A stretch of 29,124 nt of DNA from Verrucomicrobiota bacterium (lineage in GTDB: Bacteria > Verrucomicrobiota > Verrucomicrobiia > Limisphaerales > CANJXF01), in NCBI GenBank assembly GCA_038214755.1, contig JBBQRQ010000062.1, forward strand, positions 1 to 29,124, in the 5' to 3' direction. A program made the translations under genes and the position numbers. The notes below the pieces were generated by a model, which saw nothing but the letters and a program-made list of their open reading frames with translations, ran no database searches and was not told the origin of the DNA. Of the stretch, positions 10,626 through 28,767 are shown in pieces. Position 1 is the first letter of the stretch; the number at the start of each line of letters is the position of its first letter.

Positions 10626-10729
10626 TTGTTCTGACCGCCAGTTGAAATCACACCCCACGCTCACGCGCCCCTTAAAATTTTTGGGGCAAAGGCTTTTCAA
10701 AATTTTTAAAACGGATTTAATCTTCAATC

Positions 10730-12229
10730 ATGTTTTCCAAAAATGTTCTCGGCGCTCTTGTTATTTTTTTTATGACAACGATGGCGAAGGCTGTCAGCGA
10801 GATTCCTCCCGTGCCATTGCGCGAGTTCCGCGCCGCGTGGGTTCCGTCGGTGGGAAATATCGAATGGCCTTCTCAGCGCGGGTTGTCCACCGCAGAGCAG
10901 AAAACGGAATTGCTCGCGATTTTGGATCGCGCTCAGTTGTTAAAATTAAATGCAATCGTGTTGCAGGTTCGCCCGGCGTGCGACGCCCTTTACTCCTCCA
11001 AAATTGAGCCGTGGTCGGAATATCTCACGGGTCAAATGGGTCAGGCGCCCAAACCGTTTTACGATCCGCTGGCCTTCGCCGTCGCCGAAGCGCACCAACG
11101 CGGTCTGGAACTTCACGCGTGGATCAACCCATTTCGCGCGCGGGTGGTCGCTGCCAAATCTTCCATCGCGCCCAATCATGTCAGCAAAAAATATCCGGGC
11201 ATGATCGTCGCTTACGGAAAATATCTCTGGCTCGATCCCGGTTTGAAAGCGGCCCAGGACTATTCTCTCAGTGTCATTATGGACATCGTGCGCCGCTACG
11301 ACATCGATGGCCTGCACATGGACGATTATTTTTATCCTTATGTTGAAAAAGACGAAACGAAAAAGGATGAGCCGAAGAAAAATCTGATGTTCCGGGATGA
11401 CGCGAGCTATCAGAAATATCAGGTCGGCGGCGGAAAAATGTCTCGCGGTGATTGGCGGCGCGAGAATGTGAATTCCTTTATCGCGCGAACCTATCACAGC
11501 ATCAAAGCGCAAAATCCCCGTGTGAAATTTGGCGTCAGCCCGTTCGGGATTTGGAAGCCGGGCCATCCTTCTTCCACGTCGATGAAGTCGGGAAATATGT
11601 ATGAGGAAATTTATTGCGATTCGTTGAAGTGGTGGACCAATGGCTGGATGGATTATTTGTCGCCGCAACTTTATTGGGCGATCAATCCGCCGGATCAAAG
11701 TTTCACGGCCTTGTTAAAATGGTGGGCGGAAAAAAATGCGAAGGGCCGGAATCTTTGGCCAGGGATGAACACCGCCAACGTTGGGGGAAAATGGAAGGCG
11801 CAGGAAATCGTCGAGCAAATTAATGCGACGCGCGCGCAGCCGGGGGCGAGCGGCCACGTTCATTGGAGCATGAAAAGTTTGATGCGCAACAGCGGCGGAA
11901 TTTCGGATGAGTTGAGGGCGCTTTATCAGGAACCGGCTCTGATTCCCGCCGTGCCGTGGCTCAACAATATTGTCCCCGGAAAACCCACGGTCTCGGTGAA
12001 GCGCCAGGGAAAAGATCTGAAGGCGCAGTGGAATTCAGCCGGTGAAAAACCTTTCCTCTGGGTGGTGCAGCAGCGCGCGGGCGGGAAATGGAAAACTAAA
12101 ATTCTGCCCGGGGAGAAAACCTCGCTGCTGTTTACTGCCAACGAGACGGGGATTGATGAGATCGCCATTTCCGCGATCAGCCGCACTGGAATTTCCAGCG
12201 CGGCGGCGGTGTTTGAGTTTGAGAAATAA
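10730..12229 (+). CDS. DUF187 / GHL10 (YddW/DigH-like) glycoside hydrolase
   Basis: Signal peptide, EFRAAW, QVRP..DALY.S..EPWS, GLELHAWINPFR, YDIDGLHMDDYFYPY, FGVSPFGIW and DYLSPQLYW. Confidence 0.9.
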   Translation: MFSKNVLGALVIFFMTTMAKAVSEIPPVPLREFRAAWVPSVGNIEWPSQRGLSTAEQKTELLAILDRAQLLKLNAIVLQVRPACDALYSSKIEPWSEYLTGQMGQAPKPFYDPLAFAVAEAHQRGLELHAWINPFRARVVAAKSSIAPNHVSKKYPGMIVAYGKYLWLDPGLKAAQDYSLSVIMDIVRRYDIDGLHMDDYFYPYVEKDETKKDEPKKNLMFRDDASYQKYQVGGGKMSRGDWRRENVNSFIARTYHSIKAQNPRVKFGVSPFGIWKPGHPSSTSMKSGNMYEEIYCDSLKWWTNGWMDYLSPQLYWAINPPDQSFTALLKWWAEKNAKGRNLWPGMNTANVGGKWKAQEIVEQINATRAQPGASGHVHWSMKSLMRNSGGISDELRALYQEPALIPAVPWLNNIVPGKPTVSVKRQGKDLKAQWNSAGEKPFLWVVQQRAGGKWKTKILPGEKTSLLFTANETGIDEIAISAISRTGISSAAAVFEFEK

Positions 12230-12313
12230 TCGAGCGTGATTTTTCCAGCGCATTTCCCAGATATGTTCTCAGGAGAATTTTGGGCATTCGATCTGCGAAA
12301 AGAGGCGGCAATG

Positions 12314-12517
12314 GCCGATCTCCTGATCGGCATTGGAACGCTCCACATTTTCCGCGAGCCGATCGGGAGATCGGGCGTTCCGTTCTTTTGCAACAAACTG
12401 AGAGTGTGTTGCCCAAACTAATTAGGAGCGCGGACGTTCTCCTCCGCGTGAATCGGGAGGGGCGAAATCACGGGGTTTTCTCCGTTTTGAAACGCGCGGA
12501 CGACAACGTCCGCTCCT
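12314..12517. repeat. Two REP-like inverted pairs
   Basis: GCCGATCTCCTGATCGGC (12314-12331) with GCCGATCGGGAGATCGG (12358-12374). AGGAGCGCGGACGTT..CCGCG (12424-12450) with CGCGGAC..AACGTCCGCTCCT (12493-12517). Confidence 0.75.
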
Positions 12518-12652
12518 TTTCATTAGGGCAACACGCGCTCGAGATGCGCCCGCATTCGCGACAGAATTGTTTTATTGCTTGTCTGCTTATTTTTTCCTTT
12601 TACTGTGCGCGTCGTAGCCGGAGATCGTCTTCGGGAAAAAAAGATTAAGCTT

Positions 12653-13414
12653 ATGTCAGGAAAAAATTTAAAATCTCAAACCCCAACAAACTTAAAAACT
12701 CCAGCTCCACCGGCTCCTGCTAAGTCAAACATTTCCAACACTTTCACCGCCAAAAAAAATCCCACCCGCATTCTGATTGTCGATGACCATCCCCTCTTGC
12801 GGCAAGGCATCGCGCAACTGATCAATCACGAGAAAGACATGATGGTTTGCGGCGAGGCGGAAAACGGCCACAAGGCTTTGGACGCCATCGCGACGACCAA
12901 ATGCGATGTAGCCATCATCGATATTTCGCTCGGCGGCAGCAGCGGGATCGAACTGTTAAAAAACATCAAAGTACGTTACCCAAAACTTCTCGTGCTCATT
13001 CTTTCGATGCATGACGAATCCGTTTACGCCCAACGCGCTCTCCGTGCCGGAGCGGCCGGTTACATCATGAAGCAGGAAGCGACCGAAAAAGTTTTGACCG
13101 CGATCCGAAAAGTTTTGAGCGGCGAAGTTTATTTGAGCGAGAAACTCGGCACGCGCATGTTGAATCAACTCGTGGGCGGGCGCAGCGCCACGTTGACCGG
13201 CTCGCCAATCGAAGAATTAAGCGACCGCGAGTTGGAAGTCTTCGGGTTGATTGGTCAGGGACATGGCACTCGCCCCATTGCGGAAAAACTTCATCTCAGC
13301 GTGAAGACCATCGAATCGCACCGTGCTCACATTAAAGAAAAATTGAATTTAAAAAACGCCACGGAATTGGTGCATCACGCCATCCAATGGGCGCAAAGCG
13401 AAAGCCTCGGCTAA
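12653..13414 (+). CDS. NarL/LuxR-family response regulator
   Basis: ILIVDDHP receiver, IIDISL, LSMHDE, AGAAGYIMK and LSDRELEV..HLSVKTIESHR HTH. Likely start ATG 12653. Confidence 0.92.
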   Translation: MSGKNLKSQTPTNLKTPAPPAPAKSNISNTFTAKKNPTRILIVDDHPLLRQGIAQLINHEKDMMVCGEAENGHKALDAIATTKCDVAIIDISLGGSSGIELLKNIKVRYPKLLVLILSMHDESVYAQRALRAGAAGYIMKQEATEKVLTAIRKVLSGEVYLSEKLGTRMLNQLVGGRSATLTGSPIEELSDRELEVFGLIGQGHGTRPIAEKLHLSVKTIESHRAHIKEKLNLKNATELVHHAIQWAQSESLG

Positions 13415-13626
13415 AGCAATAATCAAAATTGTTTTTTCAACCCGAAGTCGCCCTCGTGGGAACTTCGGGTTTTACTTTTAAGGCGATTACCTAGTCGGTA
13501 AAACGGGTTCACCCGTATTGTTTGCGTTTCTCCCGCGCCATAATTTTTTTCCAGTAAAAATGCCAAACCAAGTCCGCAACGCGACCGTTTGGCAGCGTCG
13601 ATAAAAAATTCAACCCAGGAGGCATT

Positions 13627-14211
13627 ATGGCAAAAGCAGTTTTTTGTATAGCGACCAACGGAGCGCAGGCTGAAAATATTGTCAACAACTTGAAAACAGC
13701 CGGCTTCAGCGGCAATGACATCTCGGTTTTGTTTCCCGATAAAACAGGCACAAAAGATTTCGCGCACGAGCAAAACACCAAAGCTCCCGAAGGCGCTGCG
13801 GTGGGGGGAAGCACGGGCGGTCTGCTGGGCGGCGCGTTCGGTTGGCTGGTTGGAATCGGCGCGTTGGCCATTCCCGGCGTCGGCCCGTTCATCGCGGCGG
13901 GACCGATCATGGCGGCGTTAAGCGGCGCGGCGGTCGGTGCGGCTCTGGGCGGCATTACCGGCGCATTGGTCGGGATGGGCATTCCCGAATTTGAAGCCAA
14001 ACGTTATGAGGGCAAAATTAAAGCGGGCAATATTTTGATTTCGGTTCACTCGGAAAATAGTGACGAGACCAAACGCGCCAAAGAAATTTTCGAACGGGGG
14101 GGAGCGCAGGACATCTCCAGCAGTTCGGAAGCAGGGGTAAAAGGGGAGAAAGCCGCTCAGCGAGAATCAAAAAAAGAAGGGGTGCGACAAGAGCAATGGG
14201 AAAAATATTAA
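13627..14211 (+). CDS. Gly-rich membrane general-stress-type protein (DUF3341/YflT-like)
   Basis: Gly-zipper TM hairpin GLLGG..GIGALAIPGVGPFIAAGP..GIPEFEAKRYE; RBS AGGAGG upstream. Confidence 0.75.
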   Translation: MAKAVFCIATNGAQAENIVNNLKTAGFSGNDISVLFPDKTGTKDFAHEQNTKAPEGAAVGGSTGGLLGGAFGWLVGIGALAIPGVGPFIAAGPIMAALSGAAVGAALGGITGALVGMGIPEFEAKRYEGKIKAGNILISVHSENSDETKRAKEIFERGGAQDISSSSEAGVKGEKAAQRESKKEGVRQEQWEKY

Positions 14212-14232
14212 TTCACGTTGAGTGATGGACTG

Positions 14233-14263
14233 AGGCCCGATTACAAGATCGGGCCTTTTTTTT
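14233..14263 (+). terminator. Rho-independent terminator
   Basis: 9-bp stem AGGCCCGAT/ATCGGGCCT with a 6-nt loop, followed by a T run, ~20 bp after the 14211 stop. Confidence 0.85.
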
Positions 14264-14330
14264 GAGTTCCAAATATCTCCTCACCCACGTCGTCTTGCGC
14301 TAGTGCTGAGTCAAACATTTTTCTGATTAG

Positions 14331-15304
14331 ATGAGAGGCCGCTTGAAATTTAAAAATATTTTTCCGCTGTTGAAAAAGACAGCCTCAGAATGGATGGCGG
14401 ATAAAGCGCCCAGACTCGGCGCGGCTCTGGCCTATTACACCATTTTCTCCATCGCTCCTCTGCTCCTCATTGCCATTACGGTTGCCGGGCTGATTTTTGC
14501 CGACGCGCAGCAACAAGTAGTCGCCCAGGTTCAGGTTCTCGTCGGAGAAAAAGGAGCCGAAGCCATTTCCGCCATGATCAAGGCCGCGCAAAAACCAGCG
14601 CAAAGCGCCTTCGCGACTCTCTTCGGATTCGCCACCTTGATCTTCGGCGCGGCAGGGGGTTTTTGTGCAATTGAAAGACGCGCTCAACACGATCTGGAAC
14701 GTGCCCGAAACAAACGCCCAAGGTGGAATCGGGTCCTTCGTAAAAAAATACTTCCTCTCATTCAGCATGGTTTTGGGAATCGGTTTTCTCCTTCTCGTCT
14801 CTCTTTTGTTGGAAGCTGGGCTGGCCATGGCCGGAGAAGTCATAAAAAATTATATTCCCGGAATGGAATTCGTCGCACGAGCCGCCGCCGTTATTGTTGG
14901 CTTTAGTGTCATTACTTTTCTCTTTGCCATGCTTTTCAAATTTTTACCGGACGCAAAAGTTCGCATGGCGGGACGTTTGGCTCGGAGCGTTGCTCACCTC
15001 GGCTCTGTTCGTCATGGGAAAAATTGGTTTGGGAGTTTATCTAGGAAAGGCGGCGGCCGCCTCCGCCTATGGCGCGGCGGGATCGCTCGTGATTGTTCTA
15101 CTCTGGGTCTATTACTCCTCGCAGATCCTGTTATTTGGAGCGGAATTTACGCAAGTTTACGCGCAACATCACGGCTCGCATTTTAGTCCGGCAATCCAAG
15201 AAAGAAATTTGTCAGCCAAACAAAAATTGGTGGCGGAGAGTGATAAACAACGTGAACGTCTGGCTTCTATTTTGGAGAAAAGTGTTGAACCGTTGAACCG
15301 TTGA
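14331..15304 (+). pseudogene. YihY/virulence factor BrkB family membrane protein with two +1 frameshifts (possibly assembly errors)
   Basis: Three overlapping ORFs carry consecutive YihY motifs (RLGAALAYYTIFSIAP; QLKDALNTIW; WRDVWLGA..YGAAGSLVIVLLWVYYSSQILLFGAEF). Extra G in G5 at 14655-14659 and an extra base at ~14960. Span 974 = 324 codons + 2. Confidence 0.8.
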
Positions 15305-15370
15305 ATCGAACGTCACATCGAACGATTCACGTTTTAACGATTCAACGATTCACGTTTCAACGATTAACCG
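15284..15370. repeat. Short tandem repeats (TTGAACCG / AACGATTC) at a convergent gene junction
   Basis: TTGAACCG TTGAACCG TTGAATCG followed by several AACGATTC units, which are roughly complementary and could form a bidirectional hairpin. Confidence 0.6.
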
Positions 15371-16883
15371 CTTTTCCATTCGTCTCCTTTTTTCCCAACG
15401 ACTTCCCCGCCGCTTCCGCGGTGTTCGCCACAAACTTTTCCAAACGCGCTTTTTCCAGCGGAGTGACTTCAAGTTTCAACGCATCTTTGTAAGCCTGATT
15501 TGCCGAAGCCGGCTTGCCCTGCGCAAAATATAAATCACCGAGCTTTTCCATTAACACCGCGCTGGTTTTTGTGATCGGTTGCGATTCCAGATAAGCGACA
15601 ACCTCAGCAAGCGGATAGTCTTGGGCGACGTTTAAATCCACGACGCGCAGATGGGACCACTCAATTAATTTACTTTTTCGCGCGAGCAAATCTTCATGCA
15701 ACTCCTGCGGCTTTCTCGCAAATGGGCGATAAAGCGGATCGCCCACCACCGTGATTTGCCACGACAACCCGCCTTGTGACGCATAGGCCGCTTCACCAAA
15801 ACTAAATCCAAAAAACATCAGCCGCGCGAAAAAAGTTCCGACATCCGGCGTCCCCATTAAATACGGTTCATCCACTGCGCCCATCGTGGCGGTCACGCCG
15901 CTGGCCAGCATCGGCCCGACCCAATTTTGATTGGTGCTGCGAACAGAAGCCGCGCTAAAAGAATGAAGATGATAACCGATCGCCCCCGGCATCCACTCGA
16001 CGCTCGGTTTGGCGAACGGGCCGGAAACAGTCGCGTCATACCAGCCAGCGTAGAGAGCAATCTGGCTCATCGGAAAATCCGTGGAAAAAGTTTCAGGCTT
16101 GTCATCCACGATCACATCGAAACCAAAATGCGCGCAAACATTGGCCGCGTTGCGAATCCAATCGTCGCCCAATTTATATTCGTTGGTCACCCCGCGCAGA
16201 TCGAAATAAGTCCGGCCCCAAAGTCCGTTTGTTTCCGCCGCCATCGCTTTATCCACGAGTCCGCGCGCGATGGCCGCGCTCGGCCCATCGATGCGGGCGA
16301 CCATTAAAATTCCATTCGTTGGATGAAGCGTCGCGGCATTGGTCGTGCCGTAAAACGGGTTCACCGCCGGCCCGGCCAGCAGTCGTTTTGGATCATTCAA
16401 CGGCAGCGTGGCGAGTTCGGAATCGACCGCTGCTTCGTTGCGGCGCAATTCGGGTTTCAATTTTTCCGCGCCCGGTTCGATCAAGCCGTTGTCGCGGGAA
16501 ATTTTCAACGGCACGCCGTAACACAAAACGGTGTAACGAATTTTCGCCTCCTTCAATTTCCAATTCGGCCCGTCGTCCGTGCTTTTGGTGGAATTGAAAT
16601 CCGCGCGAAAAGAAAAAAGTCCTTTGCTCTCCAGGAATTTGAGCAGTGGTTTTTCCAAATCGTTTCGATACTCCGCGCGGCTCATCGTTTCGCCGGTGGG
16701 CAAATCAAATCCAATGACTTGTTGGGCGGGAACTTTCCGGCGTTCAGCATAATGGCGCGCGACCTCTTTGGATTCCGGCAATCGCGAATTATAAACCACC
16801 ACAACCGCCTCGCCGGATTCCGCCGCGCGAGAAAATAAAATTCCTCCCAGAAAAATGATAACAACCGATACAACTTTTTTCAT
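15357..16883 (-). CDS. TIGR03790 family exported protein with C-terminal TPR-like helix
   Basis: Signal peptide, VVVVYNS..ES..VA.HY..RR, GVPLKI, AAVDSEL, GAIGYHLHSFSA, ATMGAVDEPY and VVGDPLYRPF. Likely start ATG 16883. Confidence 0.8.
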   Translation of the reverse strand: MKKVVSVVIIFLGGILFSRAAESGEAVVVVYNSRLPESKEVARHYAERRKVPAQQVIGFDLPTGETMSRAEYRNDLEKPLLKFLESKGLFSFRADFNSTKSTDDGPNWKLKEAKIRYTVLCYGVPLKISRDNGLIEPGAEKLKPELRRNEAAVDSELATLPLNDPKRLLAGPAVNPFYGTTNAATLHPTNGILMVARIDGPSAAIARGLVDKAMAAETNGLWGRTYFDLRGVTNEYKLGDDWIRNAANVCAHFGFDVIVDDKPETFSTDFPMSQIALYAGWYDATVSGPFAKPSVEWMPGAIGYHLHSFSAASVRSTNQNWVGPMLASGVTATMGAVDEPYLMGTPDVGTFFARLMFFGFSFGEAAYASQGGLSWQITVVGDPLYRPFARKPQELHEDLLARKSKLIEWSHLRVVDLNVAQDYPLAEVVAYLESQPITKTSAVLMEKLGDLYFAQGKPASANQAYKDALKLEVTPLEKARLEKFVANTAEAAGKSLGKKETNGKAVNR

Positions 16884-16903
16884 GTATGCCGAATTTTGGT
16901 TAA

Positions 16904-17692
16904 TCAGCACGCAAACTTAACCTGTAAACCGTCGTACGCCAGTTCGACCGTTGGCGGCAATTCCGCTTGCGCACGGTCATGGTCGTAATCATGGGTGAGG
17001 TGCGTCAGAAAAGTTTTCTCCGCGCCGATGCGCCGGGCGGTGGTCAGCGCCTCGTCCAGACACATGTGCGTCGGATGCGGTTCGCGGCGCAAGGCGTCGA
17101 GCACCGCGACTTCCACGCCACGAATTTCTTCAATCACCGCGGCGGGAACTTCTTTGCAATCGCTCAGGTAGGCGAGTCGTTTTTTTCCAGCTTGAACAAA
17201 TAAATAGCCGTTCGTCTCCGTTCGTCCATGCGGCAGAGCAAACGGGAGGATCTCCAAATCTCCCAGCGCAAACCGCCCTGAAATAATTCTTGGGTCTGGA
17301 ATAAAATAACCTTTCGGGATCGGTCCGCCGTGAAAGGCATAGGCAAAAACACGTTTCAAATCGGTCATGGTCGAGGCGCTGGCATACACCGGCAGCGCTT
17401 TGCCGCCGAGCAAATCGCAGATGCGCCGGCAATCGTCGAGGCCCATGATGTGGTCGGCGTGCGAGTGCGTAAAAATCACCGCGTCGAGCCAGCGAATATT
17501 TTCGCGCAACATCTGAATGCGAAACTCCGGCGTGGTATCGACGACGAATTTGATTTTATCCGTCGCCACATAAATGGACGGACGAGTGCGATGATTCTTT
17601 TTGTTGGCCAGAAATTCGGCTGGATATTCTTTGCCAATGATGGGCACGCCTTGAGAAGTCCCGGTGCCGAGAAAAGTGAATGAAAACGACAT
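16904..17692 (-). CDS. Metallo-beta-lactamase-fold phosphodiesterase (PhnP-like)
   Basis: [24 protein letters not shown] (HxHxDH), H.THM, LTHLTH and LAYDG. Confidence 0.9.
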
Positions 17693-17702
17693 CTAAAATT
17701 GT

Positions 17703-17962
17703 TTAAAAAAGTTTGTCGAAGTTGGAGTGGCTGCCGATCCAAAACCAACGAAGCGTATCACCAGTGCGTAAAGCGGTTGCTCGATAATGCGGGCCGATGC
17801 GAACCGAATAAACATTATTGTGTCCGCGCAATGGTTTGAAACGCAATGGAGGGTGGTTTGGATTGTCCTGAAAGATTTTAAAATTAACGCGGGCTTGCCT
17901 CTGAACTTCCAGAGGCAATTGATGGAAAAGATCCAGAACTCTGAAAGAGCGCGATTGATCAC
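17703..17962 (-). pseudogene. RelE/HigB-like toxin with one-base deletion
   Basis: GTG at 17962 overlaps the antitoxin stop. MINRALSEFW joins DLFHQLPLEVQRQA..HPPLRFK..YSVRIG.HYRA..WFWIGSH if one G is restored at 17933-17934 (260 nt = 87 codons - 1). Confidence 0.75.
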
Positions 17963-18213
17963 ATTCGGTTTGGATCGAGTGGTTCGTCTTTTCCTTCCGC
18001 AATCAATTCTTCCAGCTCTTTGATCTTGGCTGCGAGCTTTGGTCTTGGTCGAGGATCGCTGATGATCCGATCCCATTCCGCATCGCCGTCGAGTTCCTTT
18101 TCTTCCGTTTCTTTTTTTCCAGCAAGCGAACGGGCGAAATCCAAAAGTTCCGCTGCCTTGCGCGGCGGCAAGGATTCTGAAATCCGGGTAATTTCTTCGA
18201 TGTCGCTTTTCAT
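17959..18213 (-). CDS. Putative antitoxin
   Basis: Small acidic protein (LPP....ELLDFA..L; EWD) directly upstream of and overlapping the toxin-like gene. Likely start ATG 18213. Confidence 0.65.
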   Translation of the reverse strand: MKSDIEEITRISESLPPRKAAELLDFARSLAGKKETEEKELDGDAEWDRIISDPRPRPKLAAKIKELEELIAEGKDEPLDPNRM

Positions 18214-18320
18214 GGGCAGAAGATAACCAAGCATCGCGCGAGCGGCAATATGTGACTCGGAAAAAACTCTTTGCTCAACTTTCGCGCAGCCTCCAAAATC
18301 TTCGCGAAAGAAAATTTGAA

Positions 18321-18527
18321 ATGTTGACCACGCTCCGTATCAAAAATCTCGCGCTGGTTTCTGATCTCACGTTGGAACTTCAACCCGGCTTCAACGCGAT
18401 CACCGGCGAAACCGGCGCGGGCAAATCCATCATCATCGGCGCGTTAAATCTCGTTCTTGGCGAACGCGCCGACCGTTCGCTCATCCGCAACGGTTGCGAG
18501 AGTTGTTCGGTGGAAGCGGTCTTCGAT
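18321..18527 (+). pseudogene. recN: 5' fragment of DNA repair ATPase RecN
   Basis: MLTTLRIKNLALV..LELQPGFNAITGETGAGKSIIIGAL.LVLGERAD..LIR.G...SVEAVF is the RecN N-terminus with Walker A. Similarity ends after ~69 codons; the rest of the ORF is the antisense of the next gene. Confidence 0.88.
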
Positions 18528-18547
18528 GCGCAGGACCATCGCCCGCT

Positions 18548-20479
18548 TTATCGAATCCAACTTGTAATCAATAGTCGTGGTGCCAATTTCCATTCCGCGC
18601 CAGTCCAAAACTCCGCCGTGCCTTCCGAATTCAAACGCGCTCCGACTCCGACGGAACGCAACGTGGCGACGTAGATGCGCTCAAAACCTTTTTCATCAGT
18701 GATTCGATTTTTCCAAATAATCTCAATGCCAGTTGATAAATGTGCTGCCGACATTCGGTCGACAGAAAGTAGGGCAGGCGTCTCGCCTGTCCGGGAAAGT
18801 AGGGTGGGCGTCTCGCCTGCCCGCGAGGATGAGGGATTGGACTGAACAGGCGGGACGCCCGTCCTACTTTGAAGACTAATGGTCACGCGCTCGCGTAAAT
18901 TTCTCACCACAATTTCCGCCGCTTCTTCGGGGCTGTTTTCTTTGCGGATGCGCGGATAAAAGAATTCCCACAATGGACGCCGCCAATCCAATTCCTCAGC
19001 GGTAGGATGCATCACTCCGTGCGCGCCGGGACTCTCAACGGTAGGGCGCGTCAGTCCGTGCGCGCCGCTCTTAGCGGATTGAGTCCCGGCGCGCACCGAG
19101 TGACGCGCCCTACCTTCATCGTCCGGGTCAATCATCGGCGAAAGCACATAGTCATTGTAAATCTCCTTATCCACTTTCCAGTTGATCAGTTCATACACGC
19201 AATAATTGGCCAGCTCGACGTGCGTCAGCAAAGTCTTGAGTCGTTGACCGCGCCAATATGATTTGGCGGCAAGCGTTTCAAAATCTTCTTTCCATTTGGG
19301 CGGGATCAAAAACTTGCGCGCGATTTTTAAGGTGGTTTCGTTCACGGCAAATCGTGGCGTGCCGAGATGAATGGCCGTATCCGCAATGGCGAGTGTTGCC
19401 AGAATAATGGCGGTCATGCGTAAGGCGATTTCCCATTTGTTTAACTTTGATTGTAGCGGCGCGTCTATGACCGCCGTTGAACGAGTGTCTGGCGCGACGC
19501 CAGCCACGGCACGCGGGACGCGCGCGCTCCCCTTCCGCAAATAAAACCAAAAGGCTGCCCACGCGAAAGCTGGTGCAATACAGAGTAGGAAAGGAAAATC
19601 TTTCGTCACTGGAAACTCCGGCAACGGATGTTCCGGCGTGAGTTGCGCTTTGATGTATTCGCCGACATTACGGATGACCACCGCGCGATCCGCATCGAAC
19701 GCATGACTTTTGCCGGGAAGAATTTTTAATTCAGTAGAGATTCCGTTTGTTCGGAAAAATGCGGCGACTTGTTTCGCTTCGGCGACCGGAAAGATTTCAT
19801 CATTCTGACCGTGAACCAATAAAACGTGAGTTTTAAGTTTTAAGTTTTCAGTTTTAAGCTCTGCGAGAGGTTGCGAGCCACCCGCGAGCCGAACATAAAG
19901 TTGTGGTTGAGTTTCAGGATGGTTCAGAAGAAATCTTAAAGTTCTCTCCGCGCCTAAGCTGAACCCCACCCAACACTCTGGATTTTGCATTCCGCGCTCC
20001 GCATTCCGCGTTCCGCGTTTGGATAGTTCCGCGTTTCCTGCTGCCCATTTCCTTACTGCCTTAAACTGTTCATCAAACGCCGCCTCATTCGTCTGATTAT
20101 ATTCAATCGCGACCGCCGCCATGCCGAGTTCCGCCAATTGCCGCAACTCATTCCCGCAATTGATTAAATCCCCGCCCGAACCATAAACATAATAAACAAC
20201 TGGCAAAGTGCGCTGATGTTTGCGGTCTTCATGTTGAGTGACTTTGGACTTTGGACTTTGAACTTTGAACTTTTCCCGCACCGGCAACACCGCCACTCCT
20301 TTGACCTTCCCATAATGAGACGTCTTAACCGTGAACCAAATCCGCTCAAACGGATCGCGCGACTTCGCCCAAATCATCGAGCCGAAAAAAGCCAGGGAAA
20401 TAAACAACCAGAAGCCCGCGTCTTTGCTTGCGAGAAATTTTCGCCAGTTCATTTGCCGCCAGCGAAGGAGATTGCTCAC
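18548..20479 (-). CDS. Membrane protein: alpha/beta hydrolase domain plus transglutaminase-like C-terminal domain, with multiple in-frame repeat insertions
   Basis: GFSLG nucleophile elbow, HGQNDE and GKSH; TM segments; C-terminal YVLSP..WR....YVATLRSVGVGARL...EFWTG.EW resembles a transglutaminase-like core but lacks Cys. Confidence 0.65.
   Translation of the reverse strand: MSNLLRWRQMNWRKFLASKDAGFWLFISLAFFGSMIWAKSRDPFERIWFTVKTSHYGKVKGVAVLPVREKFKVQSPKSKVTQHEDRKHQRTLPVVYYVYGSGGDLINCGNELRQLAELGMAAVAIEYNQTNEAAFDEQFKAVRKWAAGNAELSKRGTRNAERGMQNPECWVGFSLGAERTLRFLLNHPETQPQLYVRLAGGSQPLAELKTENLKLKTHVLLVHGQNDEIFPVAEAKQVAAFFRTNGISTELKILPGKSHAFDADRAVVIRNVGEYIKAQLTPEHPLPEFPVTKDFPFLLCIAPAFAWAAFWFYLRKGSARVPRAVAGVAPDTRSTAVIDAPLQSKLNKWEIALRMTAIILATLAIADTAIHLGTPRFAVNETTLKIARKFLIPPKWKEDFETLAAKSYWRGQRLKTLLTHVELANYCVYELINWKVDKEIYNDYVLSPMIDPDDEGRARHSVRAGTQSAKSGAHGLTRPTVESPGAHGVMHPTAEELDWRRPLWEFFYPRIRKENSPEEAAEIVVRNLRERVTISLQSRTGVPPVQSNPSSSRAGETPTLLSRTGETPALLSVDRMSAAHLSTGIEIIWKNRITDEKGFERIYVATLRSVGVGARLNSEGTAEFWTGAEWKLAPRLLITSWIR
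18742..18870. repeat. Intragenic REP cluster (AAAGTAGG..GCGTCTCGCCTG family)
   Basis: Direct copies at 18766-18791 and 18796-18821, an inverted copy at 18846-18870 and a hairpin at 18742-18767. Related to the intergenic pair at 10277-10377. Confidence 0.85.
19001..19114. repeat. Intragenic REP triplet (GGTAGGGCGCGTCACTCCGTGCGCGCCG family)
   Basis: Direct copies at 19001-19028 and 19040-19067, inverted copy at 19087-19114. Confidence 0.85.
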
Positions 20480-20964
20480 GGGCGGACAACAGCAGTTTCA
20501 TTCGACAAAGCGGAAGCCTCCTTTTTGTGTGTTTCTCTCCGAAGCAGAATGAAAAATAAAATACTTCCAAGCCAAAGGTAGGCGGTGACGAATGCCAGCA
20601 GAAAGTTCATCACACCCGTTGAAACGCCGAAATTCCAAGCCATTGTGTCATAATACGCGCCAATCGTCTTCACTCCGAAGTAAAGCAGAGCCAATCGGTA
20701 TAGAAGCAGAGTCGAGGTAAACCACAAAACAGAAATGATTTTGAAATCCGTTTCCTTAAAAAACAGGCAAACCGTGGCGACCAGAACCTCTAGCCCCGCA
20801 AGCACCCAGAAAACATGGCGCGTGGAAATACCGAACACAGGATCGACCGGCTGTAGCACGTTCTCCCCTTGATTTCCGATTATATGCAGCATCGCCATGG
20901 CAATCAGCAGCAACCCTGCGGATAAACTAAATCGTTGAATGAATCTTGAAATCATGATGCCCAA
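20476..20964 (-). CDS. MauE/DoxX-like membrane protein lacking the CxC motif
   Basis: Four hydrophobic helices. DPVFG, LE..VA..C and W......YR align with 25082-25621, but the CSCLG position reads KTIGAYY. Confidence 0.6.
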   Translation of the reverse strand: MGIMISRFIQRFSLSAGLLLIAMAMLHIIGNQGENVLQPVDPVFGISTRHVFWVLAGLEVLVATVCLFFKETDFKIISVLWFTSTLLLYRLALLYFGVKTIGAYYDTMAWNFGVSTGVMNFLLAFVTAYLWLGSILFFILLRRETHKKEASALSNETAVVRP

Positions 20965-20967
20965 AGT

Positions 20968-22678
20968 TTAATTGCGCGACAGGAAGTCCGCCATTTCTTC
21001 CACTTTAGCTCCTTCGGTTGTCCTGGACCATGAGGTATGGCGGGCGTTCGGGTAAATTATAACTCGCGTGGCTATGCCGTGCCGTGCGGACTCATCCAGA
21101 TAAGGTGGAATTCGCTGGCGTGCTTTAGGGTCTTTCTCTCCTATTTGAATCAGCATCGTGGATATTTTGGTTTTCAACACGTCGGGTAATCCCTCTGGAC
21201 TTTGCATCACCACACCTTTCCATAAGTCCGGCCTTTCCGCGGCCAGATGGCTGATAGGATCAGTTTCCGCGCTGAATCCAAGGAGAAAAACCCGGCTAAG
21301 GTCAATGTGCGGATCTTTCGCCAACTCTTTATAGGCGGTCATCACATCAGATTCCCAGGTGTCAATTCCCTCCTCCCAACTTTTCCGGTTGATTGCCAAA
21401 AAATAATACCCAGCACAAGCTGCCATGTTTGGGTAGGGAGTCCAGCGATACGGAGTTTGGGTCAGAATCAACGGATACTTGCGTCCGGATGGAAGAGTCG
21501 TCGGTCGCCAGAGTTGACCTATTATCTCCTCATTTCCGTTACTAATCACTACTGAGCTATGGGTAATCGTCTTTGCAAAACTGAATGGCCTTTCGGTGGG
21601 CCGAACCACGCAACGCGTGTCATGGCTTGTTAAATCATGCTCCCAAATTCCCGATGGTTCAATTCCTTCGCTGCCGAAAATAAATAACCGGTCCTGCCTA
21701 TCCCTGAATTCTATAACATCTCCTTCGGAAAAAATTTGCGTAAATGCAGCGGAACCGTCCGGGCTGACATACAGCGTATGTCCCCAATGATCAGCCACCT
21801 TAAAAGCATATCCTTTTCCTTGGTTCCCAGTTTAAGCTCTCCACCTCGGGAAGATTGATCTGGTTTAAAACTTCAAATGCTCCCGTTGCCGGATGGTAAC
21901 TGCCAATCTGATAGCTATTGTCCTTGTTTCGTGCGCTGATGATCAGTTTTTCGTTGTCAGGAGAATAGGAGAAGCTCACCAGATCGTTGGTCTTTGGTTG
22001 CCAAAGTTTCACTGGCGCATTGGTCAACAAGCTCCACTTCCAGATTGCGCCGTCCTGCTTCCAAGCCAGCGTCGTTGGAGAAATGGCGGTGAAGTGCGTG
22101 ATGGCCCTGCGAGAAAGTTTCGTCAACGCCCCGCTCTTGACCCAGCGACCATTTCCCACACGACTCACCACGTGAAGGTGGTTGCTGTTATTACGATAGG
22201 CGAATGAACTGGGGGTCAGCCAACAAAACTCCTGAACATAACCCAAAGCCGTCGGGGAGGCATTGGTCGTCCCATCGCGGGCATTGCATAACACGATCTT
22301 TTGCTTAGAGCCTTTGATCGGTTTGGCGTAGGCGCAAAACTGGTCATCCGGCGACCACACCAAAAGCGAGAGACTCCCGCTAAGAACCTGACTTTCGGCC
22401 ACCTCGAAAAGTTTCTGTTTTCTTACCGTCACGAGATTCATCAAATAAACACCGACGCCTTTCTCCGTGCTTTGCGCGTACAAGAGTTGATCCCCTACAT
22501 GATTGGGAATGGGATGGTTGACGATCTTGACCGCGGAAGCCAGTTCCCGGGCGATCCGATGAATATGCCCGGCCTTGGCATAGACGCCCAGCCGCCAACC
22601 GAGAACCAACAGGATAATACAGAGCGCGTAAACCAGGTTTTTCCCTCGCGATGGTTCCCATGACTTTTGCGCATTCAT
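20968..22678 (-). CDS. S9/prolyl-oligopeptidase-like protein (beta-propeller plus alpha/beta hydrolase), split by a +1 frameshift near 21827
   Basis: N-terminal TM and WSPDD/YSPDN propeller repeats. C-terminal KYPLIL, ID.SRVFLLGFSAE, GEKD and YPNARH. The downstream frame is open upstream as NQGKGYAFKVADHW. Span 1711 = 570 codons + 1. Confidence 0.7.
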
Positions 22679-22682
22679 ATTT

Positions 22683-23447
22683 TCATTTCGACGTTTTGGG
22701 CATGGCAAAATCCTGCGAAATACTTCGCACGGACAACCATTGCCTTTGCGGCACCCACCTCGCATGGCCATCACAGAAATTCATGTTGCCGCCATCGGCT
22801 TGATGGTTGTCATCCTTCCAATCAGGATAGTTATTTTTATCTTTCGGATCGGTTGAATCGTCCGCGTCCGTCATCAAAAGAATGTCGGATGCGCTCACCT
22901 TTCTATGCTCCCTTTCCGGCGCGGCGCGCAGAAGAGTGTGACTGGCGATTGATTGAGTTGTTTTCTTCGGCCCCTCATCGCCACTAAACAGCCCGAAGGT
23001 CTCATAGCTAAGCCCTTCTTCTTTTCTCCTTTTTGCAATGAATACCATGCCGCGAGGCACCTTTTTACCGTCCGGCTTGGCGATGGTGTTGTTCAGGTTG
23101 ATAAAATGCTCGGTGCTGGGGCAGAGGAAACTTTTTACATTGGCAATTTGGGAAGGCCAGAGCCAAGTGAGATCGTCATCTCTGCTATCCCTGTCCCAGA
23201 AATCATTCTGAATCTCCATACACCAGGTTGCGCCCGTTAGGTTGCCTTCATTATCCGTTGCATACATCTGGCTGCCGAGACCAAGTTGTTTCAAGTTATT
23301 CAGGCAAGAGATACGATGCGCACGTTCCTTCGCCTTACTTAACGTGGGCAGAAGGAGCGCCGCAAGAATTCCAATAATTGCAACCACCACCAGCAATTCA
23401 ATCAAAGTGAATGCTTTCTGGGATACAATAGAGGTTTCGTTTTTCAT
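22683..23447 (-). CDS. Prepilin-type N-terminal cleavage/methylation protein with H-X9-DG motif (DUF1559-like)
   Basis: [37 protein letters not shown] and [13 protein letters not shown]. Confidence 0.92.
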
Positions 23448-25054
23448 GCCAGAGTCCCACTTTGAACCTTAAACGTGGTACCTTGAACTTTATTCTGCGC
23501 CTCACTTTGAACATTAAACTTTAAACTTTGAACTCCGTGCTCGGAGCCAAGTTCAAGCAGAATCCAAAACGTCGCGCCAGTTGCCAGTTTGAATAACCCG
23601 CCGTCAAAGAAGAACCCGACCAGTAACACAATCGCCCCCGCACGACAGGTAATCCGCAGCCAGTTCTCTTCTGAACACTGAAAACTGAAAACTGAAAACT
23701 TTCCCCCTTTCGATGTTGAATGTTCAATGTTGGATGTTCGATGTTCCCTTGTTCCTCGCAACGACAAGTAGAGATACGCTACAAAACATGCCAACGCCGG
23801 AATGCCCAGGGTAGTTCCCAATGTGAAATAATCATTCATCTGAATCGCCATCCCTTCATCGACTTTCTGTGCGCGATAAAAACGATCATAGATAGGCTCC
23901 GGCTGATTCCAACCGAAGCCGAACCACGGCTTGTCGGCGATCATTTGCAACGCGCCTTCATACGCCGAAAGCCGTTTGCGCCAAGAAAAGTCATTTGCGT
24001 TTGCCACTGATAAAGCCCTTCGCGCCGTGGCATATTCCGCGTGACGAAAGTTCAACAATGCCAGCGCGCCTATTGAAACAAGGATTAGCGCGAGTGGAAT
24101 CCATCGTCTCTGAATGAACCCGATGTAGCGTCGAGGCTGTGCCTCGAAAATCCTGCCAACCCGTCGAGCCACAGGCTCGAAGCTACATCTGACGAATTGA
24201 TAAATCAGAAATGAAATTCCGATGAAGGCCCCGAGCCACGCCCCACGACTGTAACTTTTTACAAGCCCAACCAACATCACTCCCGCCGCCGCAAAGAAGA
24301 AAATCACTTTGATCGAAATCCAGGCGCGAGAAGCCCATATTCGATGTTCAACGTTCGATGTTGGATGTTCGATGTTCCCGCCTTCTAACTCCTGACTCCT
24401 GACTCTTGACTCCGTTCCCCAATTTTGAACCTTAAACCTCAAACCTTGAACCAGCGCGCCGAGCGCGAGCGCAATTCCAACCGCCATCAGCATCCCAAAC
24501 GAATTCGGATTATCCCATACCCCAGCCGACCGCTGTTTCCCTCGATAGTGAAAATCTTGAAAAGCCTCAATACCGAGTACCGTTCCCAGAATGAATAGTG
24601 TCACAAATATTCCAATCGACTTGGCGAGCACATCCGCGCTTTTATGATGTTGCCAACCGCGCCACACTAATGCACCACTGCCAAGCGCCGCTCCACCGAG
24701 CAGCACGAGCGCTTGTGTGCTGCCCGATGCCGATGCGTAGTTAAAGGAAAATGCCAGACTTACCAGCGCAAGCATGAGCGTAAGCCAGAGGCCGGGATTA
24801 AAGCCTCGCAAAAACAATGGCTTTGCTCTATGCTGTTGCACGAGCCTGAATCCAACGAAATAGACGCCCAAGCAAACGAATACCACCCATTGCGTGGACG
24901 TATCGCGAAAAACGGCGACCAGTTCTGCCACAAAAGAGTAAAAAAACTGCGGGGCATGAGCGACTGGCGAACCGGCAACTAGGCAGAGTGCCAGCAACCC
25001 TACCACTCCTGTTAGCCACAGAGCTTCACCGAAAAATCGAGCGTTGCGTTTCAC
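23444..25054 (-). CDS. O-antigen ligase / O-oligosaccharyltransferase-like polytopic membrane protein (Wzy_C) with in-frame heptamer insertions
   Basis: R..G...[15 protein letters not shown]......[12 protein letters not shown] and N.Y..L....GI motifs; many TM helices. Confidence 0.78.
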
Positions 25055-25081
25055 TTGACAACACGCTGTCTGCGAACAGAC

Positions 25082-25621
25082 TTAAATTTTAGGGGCAGCT
25101 TCCGAAACTGGCGCGAGATACTGCCGATCAGCGCTCAATCTGTTCTGCCACCAATGTGTAATCAGCAGGCCGTAACTTCCGATTAGCAGATAGGCCAAGA
25201 TGGCCTTCATGACATTATCTGCCGTTTGAGGCGGGATATGGAGGGCGTCCGTGAGATTGCCGAGACAACTACACGGACGGTGCCAATCCATCCACCATAA
25301 GCCGAGACGATACACCACAAAGGTGGTGGAAAGCCATGCCACTAATCCCAATGCTAGAGTTTGTCGCTTCGTAAAAAAACAGGTTAGCGCAATCGCGATT
25401 TCAACCACCCCAACCGCCCATATTAATTGACCAAATTTAACTCCGATGATAGGATCATTCACAGCTAGGAACTTGGAGTCGCCCAATCCACTCCAGATCT
25501 TCGCAGCCCCGGTTATGATCAAGATCACCCCTGCGCCCCAGGCAAACGATTTTAGAAATACATTCTTTGCTCCCTTTCCTGGATCGACTTTGCTCCCCAC
25601 ATTTTGTATTACCCTAGTCAT
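25082..25621 (-). CDS. MauE/DoxX-family redox-associated membrane protein
   Basis: TGAAK, DPIIG, VEI, and a CSCLG (CxCxG) loop between TM3 and TM4. Confidence 0.75.
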   Translation of the reverse strand: MTRVIQNVGSKVDPGKGAKNVFLKSFAWGAGVILIITGAAKIWSGLGDSKFLAVNDPIIGVKFGQLIWAVGVVEIAIALTCFFTKRQTLALGLVAWLSTTFVVYRLGLWWMDWHRPCSCLGNLTDALHIPPQTADNVMKAILAYLLIGSYGLLITHWWQNRLSADRQYLAPVSEAAPKI

Positions 25622-25657
25622 GCTTTGCGCGGGTGTAATAATTACGACTCTGCGTTT

Positions 25658-26110
25658 CTAGGAACAGGCATCGGCCCCAGGTGCAGTGGTCCCAGGGACA
25701 ACGGTCCACGTTCCGAAGGTAGGGCATCCGCAGCTACTTAGAGGTAATAGAGAAATTCCACAAGCAGAGGATTCCACCTTGCTGGTGCAACCCCCCGCTG
25801 GAGGATTGCACTTTGATAGCCCGCCAACACAATCGTGACATGAGGTGTAGGCCAATCTATTACATGATCCAGTACACGTGCCAGAGGCGGTTGTGCAGGG
25901 AGTGGGACCGGAAGGAAACGCGGTACCATTGCCGCGAGTAACACACCATTCCCAAGAACCTTCTTGAGCAACGGAAAAAAGGCTGGTCGTCACCAAGATA
26001 AAAGTGACTGCTATGCCCTTTTTCACCAGATCCAAGGTTCGATTGCTCAAAGCTAGAGGTCTGATTGAGTCATTATTATTCATACGTGTTCCTGTGTTTT
26101 GTGTTTTCAT
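25658..26110 (-). CDS. Secreted cysteine-rich small protein 2 (12 Cys)
   Basis: KK plus hydrophobic signal ending SVA, then a ~100-aa G/T/S/P-rich region with 12 Cys, the last penultimate. Alternative starts at 26110 and 26083. Confidence 0.8.
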   Translation of the reverse strand: MKTQNTGTRMNNNDSIRPLALSNRTLDLVKKGIAVTFILVTTSLFSVAQEGSWEWCVTRGNGTAFPSGPTPCTTASGTCTGSCNRLAYTSCHDCVGGLSKCNPPAGGCTSKVESSACGISLLPLSSCGCPTFGTWTVVPGTTAPGADACS

Positions 26111-26134
26111 GCGTGTTCCTGTGTTTTGTGTTTT
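26081..26134. repeat. 27-bp tandem duplication containing RBS and start codon
   Basis: Minus strand reads AAAACACAAAACACAGGAACACGCATG AAAACACAAAACACAGGAACACGTATG (1 mismatch). Confidence 0.9.
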
Positions 26135-27195
26135 TTCAGTTTCCAGAAGAAAAGCAAAGTTGAAGTTAGGAGGAAGAATAGAACCGCAGAGCGTACAACT
26201 TTTGGATTTGCAACCTTGGTAATATGGTTCCGATTGACAAATGCTTTCTGTTTCTTTTCGTTAAAAAGACGGAGGAGCACTGGGTTTGTCGCGGCTATCC
26301 AATGAAAATTCGTTACCGAATAAGAGATCTCGTCCACTCCGGCGACCGCATCACTAAATCGATAATCCCCTATGCTGTATCTGCCAAGTGACTCCGGAAA
26401 CGGACTAAAATCACCGACTTCTTCCAAGGACTCGACTATTCCTTGATATCGTTGGACTGGAAACGAGCCTTGAGGGGAGTGAGCGTACACTGACAAAGAA
26501 AACTCTTTCGGAAAAACTGATTCATTCCAATTGGTGGCTTGTCCCACCCTATATTCAGCATCTACAACTCCGTCGGTTACATTATTTAATGCCTCCTTAA
26601 TTACGTCATCCTTAACCGCATGTGAAAGAAAAGAACTGGTTTTCAATGCCGAAACTGAAACCTTCGCTTGAATAAAGTCTAAAGCAGAGGGCAAGAAACC
26701 AGCTCCATCGAGCCAGGTAACGTTTGTAAGCTTGAGAGCGCAACTGAAAGGATTTTGGAAAGGCATATTCCATAACGCTGGAAGAATCGCGCCGGATCGG
26801 ACCAAATTCGTATCGGTCGCCAGTGCAAGCCATATCACACGAGTAATGGGTTCTGAGTGACAGGGATAGCTGAAAGGCGTGATCACGGCAACGTTTCCAT
26901 TCTTAATAGTTTCGGGGAAATCGACAGGGCTAAATTCGAGCACTGAACAAAGCTCCTTCCCATCAAATCCGCATAACTCGGTGAATCCAGTACCATATTG
27001 AACCCGCATCTGCCAAATTTTACCCCACAGTTTAACTTCGAATGGAGCCCTGAAGTTATGTTGCACTGTGCCTAGTCGATCTAACGTTTGGACGACAATA
27101 GTGCCACGAACCATAGCCTTTTCCGTCGCGGTTGCAGCTTTTGTCAGAAGCACAAAAGCAAAACTGCTCAGGAAAATTCCGACACATAATTTCAT
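26107..27195 (-). CDS. Exported protein with C-terminal membrane anchor (cassette partner 2)
   Basis: Signal peptide, C-terminal TM plus basic tail; shares ordered motifs with 27664-28767. Confidence 0.75.
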   Translation of the reverse strand: MKLCVGIFLSSFAFVLLTKAATATEKAMVRGTIVVQTLDRLGTVQHNFRAPFEVKLWGKIWQMRVQYGTGFTELCGFDGKELCSVLEFSPVDFPETIKNGNVAVITPFSYPCHSEPITRVIWLALATDTNLVRSGAILPALWNMPFQNPFSCALKLTNVTWLDGAGFLPSALDFIQAKVSVSALKTSSFLSHAVKDDVIKEALNNVTDGVVDAEYRVGQATNWNESVFPKEFSLSVYAHSPQGSFPVQRYQGIVESLEEVGDFSPFPESLGRYSIGDYRFSDAVAGVDEISYSVTNFHWIAATNPVLLRLFNEKKQKAFVNRNHITKVANPKVVRSAVLFFLLTSTLLFFWKLKKHKTQEHA

Positions 27196-27381
27196 GTTTT
27201 TATAGGCTTTACTGTTCGGTCAAAAGCTTGAGCTAATTCCGCTTGCGCCAAATTCAACTTCTTTAGTTCTTTCTGAAATATCCATCCCGCCTTTTCCGGT
27301 TTTAGAACGCTCTCCCGATTTGCGTCGATACTCGGTTGACCTCTTTACTTATAATTACTCAAGGCTGACCTCTTTCCCAAT

Positions 27382-27651
27382 TCAAATGCACGAGGGACCT
27401 GGACCACACACACCACTGACCGGCGGTTTACAAGTGGTTTTTGGGGTGCAGGTACCTGAAGGTGCATCAACACAACCTATGGTTGTACAAGTCGTTTTGG
27501 TGCAACTAGTAGGGCAGTTCCTCGTCTCCGGCTGAGTGAGCGTAAATGGTGTGCCGGGTTTTTTTCCTTCGACTGCCATAATTTGTAACGCCAGTAAAAC
27601 CATGCTTGCGATCAAGCATGCCAATATTGTTTTTATTCTTTTGTTTTTCAT
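27382..27651 (-). CDS. Secreted cysteine-rich peptide 1 (8 Cys in mature part)
   Basis: MKNKRIK plus hydrophobic signal ending IMA; predicted 63-aa mature peptide with 8 Cys and 14 Thr, last Cys penultimate. Confidence 0.8.
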   Translation of the reverse strand: MKNKRIKTILACLIASMVLLALQIMAVEGKKPGTPFTLTQPETRNCPTSCTKTTCTTIGCVDAPSGTCTPKTTCKPPVSGVCGPGPSCI

Positions 27652-27663
27652 AGCTTTAATCTG

Positions 27664-28767
27664 TTATCGACTTGTTTTACTTTGTTTCATCCTGCACCAC
27701 CATGTGGCAAATACCATAGGCGGTACAAAAATTAATACTCCGATCAGAATTCGGGCCAAATTGGACTTGGGAGGAAATGGGTTAGACGTTCGTATTATTT
27801 GAGTAATTACTGTTACCTTGCTTTTGATGGATGGAGCATCTTTATTGAGCCAAACACCATTCGTAATAATATACGTAAGAGCGGGACGTAGAACCTCGGG
27901 CTTCGTGTTAAACTCCTTGTCGTAGCGAAAATCGTAAACTTCGGTTTGCCTAGCGATTGTTCGCGGAAGCAGTGATCCCAAGGTCGCGTTTAAAATGAAA
28001 TTTGTTACCTGAAACTCTGCTTTGTAAACAAACTGAAGATCATTTTTGTCCAACGCATTCGGAAATTTCGGAATGTATTGTCTGTATTCGAATATTCTAG
28101 GAAAAATCAAACCCCCAACATTGGTTGTTTCTATAACCTGAAGCTCCCAAACCTTGTATTCATTATTATACGCCTTCGGTAAAGTCATCACTTTGTCCTT
28201 CACCAGAAACGCTGGCGAATAACCCTCTATTCTAACTGGTAGTTTAGGCTCATGCGTAGACCACTCTATTTTGCTAGTCGTTGCGTTAGTGGGAACGTAT
28301 GAAAGATCATTCAATGGCAAAAAACTTCCCTGAGGAGAAAGCAAATATTCCGTAGCCGAGGATAGTAGCCATATACATTGCACCGGCTTCAGCGATTTGA
28401 CGGGAAATGCCCCAGAACTTACATACCCCACTTCTTTATACCCACTATTCTTCCTTTTGTCGTCCCACGATGGCCATTGCTGTTCAAGAAAATAATTATC
28501 AATTCCATCACTCCCCGTCTCCTCGTCCCAATAGTACTCACCATCAACCGACCTTGCATTTATGCGATATGACTTATCGCGAACCTCGAGTGAAAAATTC
28601 CAGTGATCAGCAACAATCGCTTTGCCATCCTTTAAAAGTTTCCAAGTGAAATTACCCTGAGCAATATATTCGTCTGCGTAGCTTTTATCAATGTTAGTTA
28701 AATTTACTAACATTAAAAATAAAAATATAGGGATATGTTTCAGATCGGTGGACATCATAATCATCAC
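27664..28767 (-). CDS. Exported protein with C-terminal membrane anchor (cassette partner 1)
   Basis: Signal peptide, C-terminal TM plus basic tail; divergent paralog of 26107-27195; visibly AT-rich. Confidence 0.75.
   Translation of the reverse strand: MMIMMSTDLKHIPIFLFLMLVNLTNIDKSYADEYIAQGNFTWKLLKDGKAIVADHWNFSLEVRDKSYRINARSVDGEYYWDEETGSDGIDNYFLEQQWPSWDDKRKNSGYKEVGYVSSGAFPVKSLKPVQCIWLLSSATEYLLSPQGSFLPLNDLSYVPTNATTSKIEWSTHEPKLPVRIEGYSPAFLVKDKVMTLPKAYNNEYKVWELQVIETTNVGGLIFPRIFEYRQYIPKFPNALDKNDLQFVYKAEFQVTNFILNATLGSLLPRTIARQTEVYDFRYDKEFNTKPEVLRPALTYIITNGVWLNKDAPSIKSKVTVITQIIRTSNPFPPKSNLARILIGVLIFVPPMVFATWWCRMKQSKTSR

Follow-up and report, generated by a model that had tools for sequence, protein, structure and literature searches.

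A cassette-plus-core locus in Limisphaerales and its possible role in the maturation of variable disulfide-rich mini-proteins

This work concerns a stretch of 29,124 nucleotides from a Verrucomicrobiota bacterium (Limisphaerales; GenBank assembly GCA_038214755.1, contig JBBQRQ010000062.1, positions 1 to 29,124 of the forward strand), hereafter the window, and a gene cluster lying in it. The cluster comprises two cassettes, each made up of a gene for a membrane-anchored protein (the partner) and a gene for a small cysteine-rich protein (the mini-protein or peptide), and continues with a MauE gene and a set of core genes. The host is uncultured, and the only run that holds the DNA is labelled sediment metagenome; the host genome is 97% complete, with a guanine-plus-cytosine (GC) content of 52.7%. 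The features are listed below (aa, amino acids; bp, base pairs; ORF, open reading frame; pLDDT, predicted local distance difference test).

27664..28767, minus strand: partner 1, 367 aa, with an N-terminal hydrophobic segment, a LolA-like domain (by family) and a C-terminal membrane helix (alignments A1-A3, hydropathy).
27382..27651, minus strand: Cys-rich mini-protein 1, 89 aa, with a signal-peptide-like start and 8 Cys in the mature part; passes the genome-wide filter described below.
26107..27195, minus strand: partner 2, 362 aa, with a predicted LolA-superfamily fold and a C-terminal membrane helix, and without conserved Cys.
25658..26110, minus strand: Cys-rich mini-protein 2, 150 aa (141 if the start is at 26083), 12 Cys, all-beta model (Cys conservation, codon bias, pLDDT 88.3).
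25082..25621, minus strand: MauE with a CXC motif (CSCLG), likely a DsbB-like disulfide oxidase (PF07291 E 1.6e-9, motif, preprint).
23444..25054, minus strand: Wzy_C/O-ligase-like membrane protein with MNDY replacing HNDY and in-frame short-repeat inserts (PF04932 E 9.6e-17).
22683..23447, minus strand: DUF1559-type prepilin (H-X10-DG), a slot held by differing paralogues across loci (Pfam/NCBIfam, tree).
21800..22678 (ORF 21800-22774), minus strand: 5' half of an S9-type hydrolase gene (membrane anchor and propeller), with a frameshift near 21835.
20968..21798, minus strand: 3' portion of this S9-type hydrolase, which retains Ser, acid and His (PF00326 E 4.1e-5, alignment).
20476..20964, minus strand: CXC-less MauE paralogue, typically adjoining the S9 gene (E 5e-8 to the first MauE).
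18548..20479, minus strand: alpha/beta-hydrolase (Ser-Asp-His), two membrane helices and a Cys-less transglutaminase-like domain (Transglut_core E 6.5e-6 in homologue L045).
18262..18530, plus strand: recN 5' stub at the downstream island junction (92% identity over 269 bp to the intact recN on C51).

The gene order given in a preliminary description of this DNA was confirmed: all the listed genes were found on the minus strand from 28767 to 18548, and a Pfam search of the locus identified MauE, Wzy_C, N_methyl/DUF1559 and Peptidase_S9, with two serine-hydrolase domains in all. Both partners, both peptides and the second MauE-like gene had no family match in Pfam or NCBIfam. The successive gaps are 12, 186, -4, 36, 27, -4, about 4, 1, 3 and -4 bp, the value of about 4 bp between prepilin and propeller assuming a likely start at 22678 taken from the sequence; nearly all genes abut, and the close packing described earlier holds for most gaps (-4 to 36 bp), the one of 186 bp excepted. 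The cassettes are the AT-richest part, as had been stated (partner 1, 40.5% GC against 52.7% for the genome), and CSCLG is present in the first MauE and absent from the second MauE-like gene. Among the details corrected, the propeller-S9 gene, taken as single, is split into two ORFs by the frameshift, and the prepilin motif, read as H-X9-DG, is H-X10-DG.

The comparison of homologous neighbourhoods that the preliminary description proposed was run, and a recurring core with a variable count of partner-plus-peptide cassettes was found. For this, 60 loci were fetched; the cassette count covers 66 partners, after 3 partners at locus edges had been dropped. A small Cys-rich ORF lies immediately downstream of 37 of the 66 partners (two of these peptides being doubtful ORFs), compared with 11 of 267 control ORFs of the same loci, at least two of which are themselves genuine cassette peptides. 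Arrays reach five cassettes (L065). The host genome holds three partner-plus-peptide loci in total, the further ones being on C80 (peptide-MauE-partner-prepilin) and C44 (partner-peptide). When the whole genome was filtered for ORFs with a hydrophobic N-terminus and at least eight Cys, 4 passed and 3 of them lie within partner cassettes; peptide 2 itself failed this filter.

Both partners, which share only 17-18% identity and each align with homologues adjoining MauE genes of relatives, belong to one family of predicted LolA fold, and the partner subfamily follows the peptide class; neither point was in the preliminary description. Of 301 genomes from the order, 108 give a hit to the partner profile (a tally that includes the host's own genome and one unpublished genome, G009, otherwise unused), and so does 1 of a further 250 taken from elsewhere in the phylum. 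The family comprises 3,612 clusters at 50% identity, and its nearest clusters in the ESM Atlas are mostly from Verrucomicrobiota. The partner model, an open beta half-barrel with a helical lid, fits the LolA/LolB superfamily. The partners differ from LolA/LolB carriers (9tp6, 2w7q, 3bk5; RseB/MucB), with which they share 6-10% identity, in their length of about 300 aa, in having a C-terminal membrane helix, in occurring in several copies per genome and in their non-lipoprotein clients. A canonical LolA is a soluble carrier of lipoproteins; here the membrane helix is followed by a tail of about 10-15 residues, and a lipobox-like pattern was found in only 3 of 35 paired peptides. At 6 of the 9 loci that have a peptide and no detected partner, another tail-anchored protein flanks the peptide. 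Secreted tail-anchored proteins of other families, negative for the partner profile, were seen beside Cys peptides at L021:10367-11569, L042:2613-3797, L043:2384-3637, L050:11354-14057, L105:492-1658 and L110:7779-8912. A distinct single-helix-anchored protein lies downstream of some Cys peptides (L025:3505-4332, L065:1796-2584).

Partners and peptides appear to diverge together. The closest homologue of partner 2 (63% identity) adjoins the closest homologue of peptide 2 (49%), and when the 12-Cys peptide class is mapped onto a partner tree of 40 rows, 5 changes are required, compared with a shuffled mean of 11.8 (0 of 500 shuffles). Single genomes hold partners from both groups of the tree.

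Among 35 credible peptides the mature Cys count is even in 32, mostly 8, 10 or 12. Their composition is rich in Thr, Gly, Cys, Ser and Pro and is not cationic (Lys plus Arg about 5%). In peptide 2, 11 of 12 Cys are invariant across 6 sequences; its differences from its closest homologue fall at codon positions one, two and three in the numbers 38/30/58, that is mostly at the third, and it is modelled as an all-beta mini-protein. For peptide 1 no homologue was found among the fetched loci (best E 0.15). The pattern CxGxC...CxC, which we take to be the ring signature of growth-factor cystine knots, occurs in 10 of 54 peptides against a shuffle mean of 0.77 and maximum of 5; fold searches gave no decision. 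A 27-nt tandem duplication at 26079-26132, the junction of partner 2 and peptide 2, gives two possible starts for the latter.

The MauE gene matches PF07291 at 38.6 bits (cut-off 27), and its translation shows, besides the CXC, the Lys and Glu that are conserved in helices one and two. CXC is found in 39 of 55 aligned MauE homologues and is absent from 7 of 10 MauE-like genes adjoining an S9 gene; the remaining misses are mostly broken genes or motif variants. The preliminary description had relied on a role of MauE in disulfide formation, and this is backed by a preprint in which two other MauE proteins replace Escherichia coli DsbB in a CXC-dependent manner (10.64898/2026.03.05.709764). The same text gives 8.2% of MauE entries as thioredoxin fusions and suggests a thioredoxin intermediary. 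In contrast, the domain fused to MauE in this system (7 ORFs in 6 genomes) is the Cys-free partner, not a thioredoxin. Both CXC-bearing MauE genes found in the host are located in peptide loci; two further weak matches to PF07291 correspond to small membrane proteins distinct from these. No match to DsbB, VKOR or DsbA-like (PF13462) proteins was found in the 97%-complete host genome, and no thioredoxin family recurs near partners, two loci having an unrelated DUF255 neighbour. By analogy with known families, MauE is likely a quinone-linked CXC oxidase, and we are fairly confident that these mini-proteins are what it oxidises. At L122:6881-8242, L128:5472-6854 and L056:14236-15597, a CXC-less MauE is joined to a full prepilin through a small Cys-pair (zinc-ribbon-like) linker, so placing the pilin motif in mid-protein.

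The transglutaminase-like domain was found in 47 of the 301 genomes. A reverse test seeded on it gave 40 new loci, 23 of them with at least 6 kilobases (kb) of upstream room; these 23 contained the ligase in 21 cases, MauE in 18, the prepilin in 15, a Cys peptide in 13 (one doubtful), S9 in 11 and a profile-detected partner in 6. Ligase and transglutaminase-like domain are fused in a single ORF at 5 of the earlier loci and 15 of the new ones. The label hydrolase/transglutaminase-like needs a correction: the transglutaminase-like domain lacks a conserved catalytic Cys, there being no fixed Cys before the LRSVG-type motif, presumably the catalytic position, in 25 matched sequences, 6 of which have Cys at varying positions. 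Both hydrolases retain Ser and His wherever the domain is present, the S9 homologues in 12 of 12 aligned; 11 of 11 S9 homologues aligned are single ORFs, unlike the window copy, and Pfam scores for this gene type are near the cut-off. In a separate assembly of the probable source run, one contig spans 20244-28940 without a difference, S9 split included, and the split is therefore not an artefact of this one assembly. The ligase matches Wzy_C at 61.6 bits (cut-off 31.7) and shares conserved Arg motifs with PglS, PglL and WaaL (PMC12800693). It differs from them in that its catalytic His position is substituted by a hydrophobic residue or Thr/Ser, and in its frequent fusion to the Cys-less transglutaminase-like domain; three other Wzy_C proteins of the host genome keep His at the aligned column, and PglS requires it, H324A being inactive (PMC12800693). 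Loci without the ligase often have other membrane glycosyltransferase-like genes, namely PMT_2, PIG-V-like, GtrA and GT2 (Pfam), and a PMT-like family identified by Atlas features only. On a tree of about 50 paralogues, the prepilins adjoining the system are spread over several branches, and the host genome has 93 ORFs with the prepilin N-methylation motif. Within the ligase and hydrolase genes, in-frame repeats (seven-base tandem and palindromic, of genome-wide families) are translated as loop inserts (24340-24451, 23456-23748, 20238-20270, 18765-18824 and 18995-19114).

Gene content, linkage, fusions, cysteine parity and motif states are observed directly, and models predict the partner and peptide folds. 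With these in hand we lean, by a narrow balance, to the view that a conserved cassette-plus-core system matures variable disulfide-rich mini-proteins in the cell envelope. The mini-protein would be exported by Sec, as predicted, and caught or held by its own partner, a membrane-tethered protein for which a LolA fold is predicted; the adjacent MauE would oxidise it, likely without a thioredoxin relay. In core-bearing loci the ligase-like enzyme would possibly glycosylate the mini-protein and the S9 hydrolase possibly trim it, and release may proceed via a pilin-type apparatus. It is genomic context that suggests partner-peptide binding, glycosylation, trimming and pilin-type release. That each partner binds its own mini-protein seems probable to us; that the mini-protein is the glycan acceptor falls a little short of an even chance. 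The dedicated pathway of export, folding, trimming and glycosylation put forward in the preliminary description is thus upheld in its cassette-core linkage and MauE role, and weakened in the ligase, the prepilin and the S9 gene.

Several observations weigh against this reading. No passing downstream peptide was found for 29 of the 66 partners; some of these have broken or upstream peptides, and several look orphan, as immunity genes often are. Co-inheritance alone can yield the co-divergence of partner and peptide, and the genomes are kin, so that counts are not independent. An A2-type partner is present in only 31 of the 47 core-domain genomes, versus 77 of the 254 others, and these 77 partner genomes without a core match, together with the 31 of 47, mean that cassette and core are separable. 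The His before N-D-Y/W is found in 0 of 13 and 0 of 22 ligase sequences; the prepilin comes from a greatly expanded family and is interchangeable with other members; and the frameshift of the S9 gene in the window copy means either that trimming is not needed in this copy or that the copy is decaying. In favour of the reading, 20 of 58 partner loci have a ligase or a comparable membrane glycosyltransferase-like gene no more than 3 kb away, as against about 2% of random positions and 5 of 93 prepilins in the host genome; this contrast is overstated since the queries were drawn from the same loci, and several families counted have no Pfam support. The partner cannot be a redox relay, since none of its Cys is conserved (the best column has 21 of 81), and a TlpA-like CXXC protein elsewhere in the host genome (C63) could serve MauE.

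Some of these points would suit polymorphic toxin-immunity cassettes, in which the oxidised mini-protein would be exported as an antibacterial agent, the LolA-fold partner would be the matching immunity protein in the periplasm, and the toxin would be matured by MauE and the core. Strict one-to-one pairing with co-divergence, the arrays of up to five cassettes at L065, the AT-rich and patchy cassettes, the apparent orphan partners and the extreme diversity of the family agree with it. However, the MauE-partner fusions of six genomes suit maturation better than immunity, the peptides are neutral rather than cationic and no recurrent dedicated exporter was seen, and we hold such cassettes to be rather unlikely. 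Another explanation is that two modules share one variable site: MauE alone would serve the peptides, and the ligase, transglutaminase-like domain and hydrolases would act on the prepilin or on a lipid of the envelope, in the manner of pilin O-oligosaccharyltransferases. The prepilin near the core in 15 of 23 loci, the CXC-less MauE-prepilin fusion in at least two loci, the separation of core and cassette in many genomes and the position of 3 of 6 host PMT_2 genes near prepilins speak for it. Yet the prepilins beside the system are polyphyletic, only 5 of the 93 in the host genome lie within 3 kb of such transferases, and at L058 (G136:C1, about 4200-19900) transferase genes are repeated inside peptide cassettes that include no prepilin, the repeating unit combining GtrA, either MauE or its fusion to the partner, a peptide and a PIG-V-like transferase; two modules are improbable in our judgement.

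The mini-protein might also be a secreted signal and the tethered partner its receptor, much as LolA-fold RseB/MucB binds a peptide ligand, but the short partner tail after the membrane helix and the lack of a recurrent kinase or anti-sigma gene make this very unlikely. Least credible is a bufferin-like, metal-binding periplasmic metallophore. Small Sec-exported proteins with many Cys and a DoxX/MauE-type neighbour do resemble bufferin operons (PMC11626156); the MNIO and DUF2063 genes are not in the window locus, the sole MNIO of the genome being at C47:33620-34402, and the even numbers of Cys point to full pairing of the thiols.

Turning to its surroundings, the locus had been described as starting at a broken recN; instead, the operon converges on the recN stub and ends there. 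recN is indeed broken at this site, with an intact copy on C51, and the junction is bridged by a contig of the separate assembly. The contig end, only 357 bp above partner 1, limits the view of the upstream boundary. In congeners the interval around recN carries differing inserts, and the core adjoins recN in G005 and sits elsewhere in G001 and G003; the locus therefore acts like a variable accessory island. The 3' end of the hydrolase/transglutaminase-like gene (18547-18794) recurs at 2150-2391 (plus strand) in inverted orientation, as a remnant with 83-85% identity left from a previous island copy. Between an MBL hydrolase gene and recN, a ParE-like toxin and DUF2281 antitoxin-like pair (17703-18234, minus strand) occupies the same site as in G007. 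By reading of their translations, 2482-3468 (plus strand) encodes a secreted Ig-like protein with two CxxCH motifs, and 5865-7928 (plus strand) a secreted redoxin/cytochrome/monooxygenase-like multidomain protein.

The preliminary description did not recognise a named system here, and a literature search found no description of this one; the locus falls outside the mau cluster, the bufferins, canonical LolA and canonical O-ligases. Glycocins such as sublancin combine disulfides and a glycan with dedicated oxidase and immunity logic; the window locus differs from them in having neither a cytoplasmic glycosyltransferase nor a peptidase-ABC exporter. In the mauE-mauD-mauA genes of the methylamine dehydrogenase cluster, as presented in the above preprint, a CXC MauE is likewise encoded next to a small exported protein that could form up to six disulfides (10.64898/2026.03.05.709764). 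In contrast, mauA, mauB, mauD and mauG were not matched among the locus genes by Pfam or NCBIfam, leaving no MauD/thioredoxin, MauB or MauG; the client here is hypervariable and multi-copy, and the MauE-fused slot holds a Cys-free LolA-fold protein rather than a thioredoxin. Candidate clusters for ribosomally synthesised and post-translationally modified peptides in Streptomyces (decRiPPter, PMC7794033) also place mauE beside a precursor with at least 8 Cys and no other mau genes. They differ in being uncharacterised predictions from another phylum, and the available part of that source makes no mention of a LolA-fold partner, ligase or prepilin.

Taken together, this is a widespread and apparently unpublished envelope system with a proposed function. 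A family without annotation, numbering over 3,600 clusters, gains a predicted fold and a testable client. The system also offers a direct test of whether MauE can oxidise a client without DsbA or MauD, an open point in the MauE pathway; the search of the host genome found no DsbB, VKOR or DsbA-like gene. The fusion of a dead transglutaminase-like domain to a conserved Wzy_C ligase without the His hints at new glycosyl-transfer chemistry. Bacterial disulfide-rich mini-proteins with 4-6 bonds are rare and sought as scaffolds, and a matched oxidase-chaperone pair would help to make them. In its widest form, which we put forward tentatively and regard as doubtful, the proposal is that one Verrucomicrobiota order operates a thioredoxin-free line of oxidative folding and glycosylation, where thousands of LolA-fold tethered chaperones would present cognate mini-proteins directly to quinone-linked MauE, and a His-less ligase or swapped-in GT-C enzyme would glycosylate them. 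If true, this would amount to a bacterial library of disulfide-stapled glyco-mini-proteins with a diversity like that of venoms or defensins.

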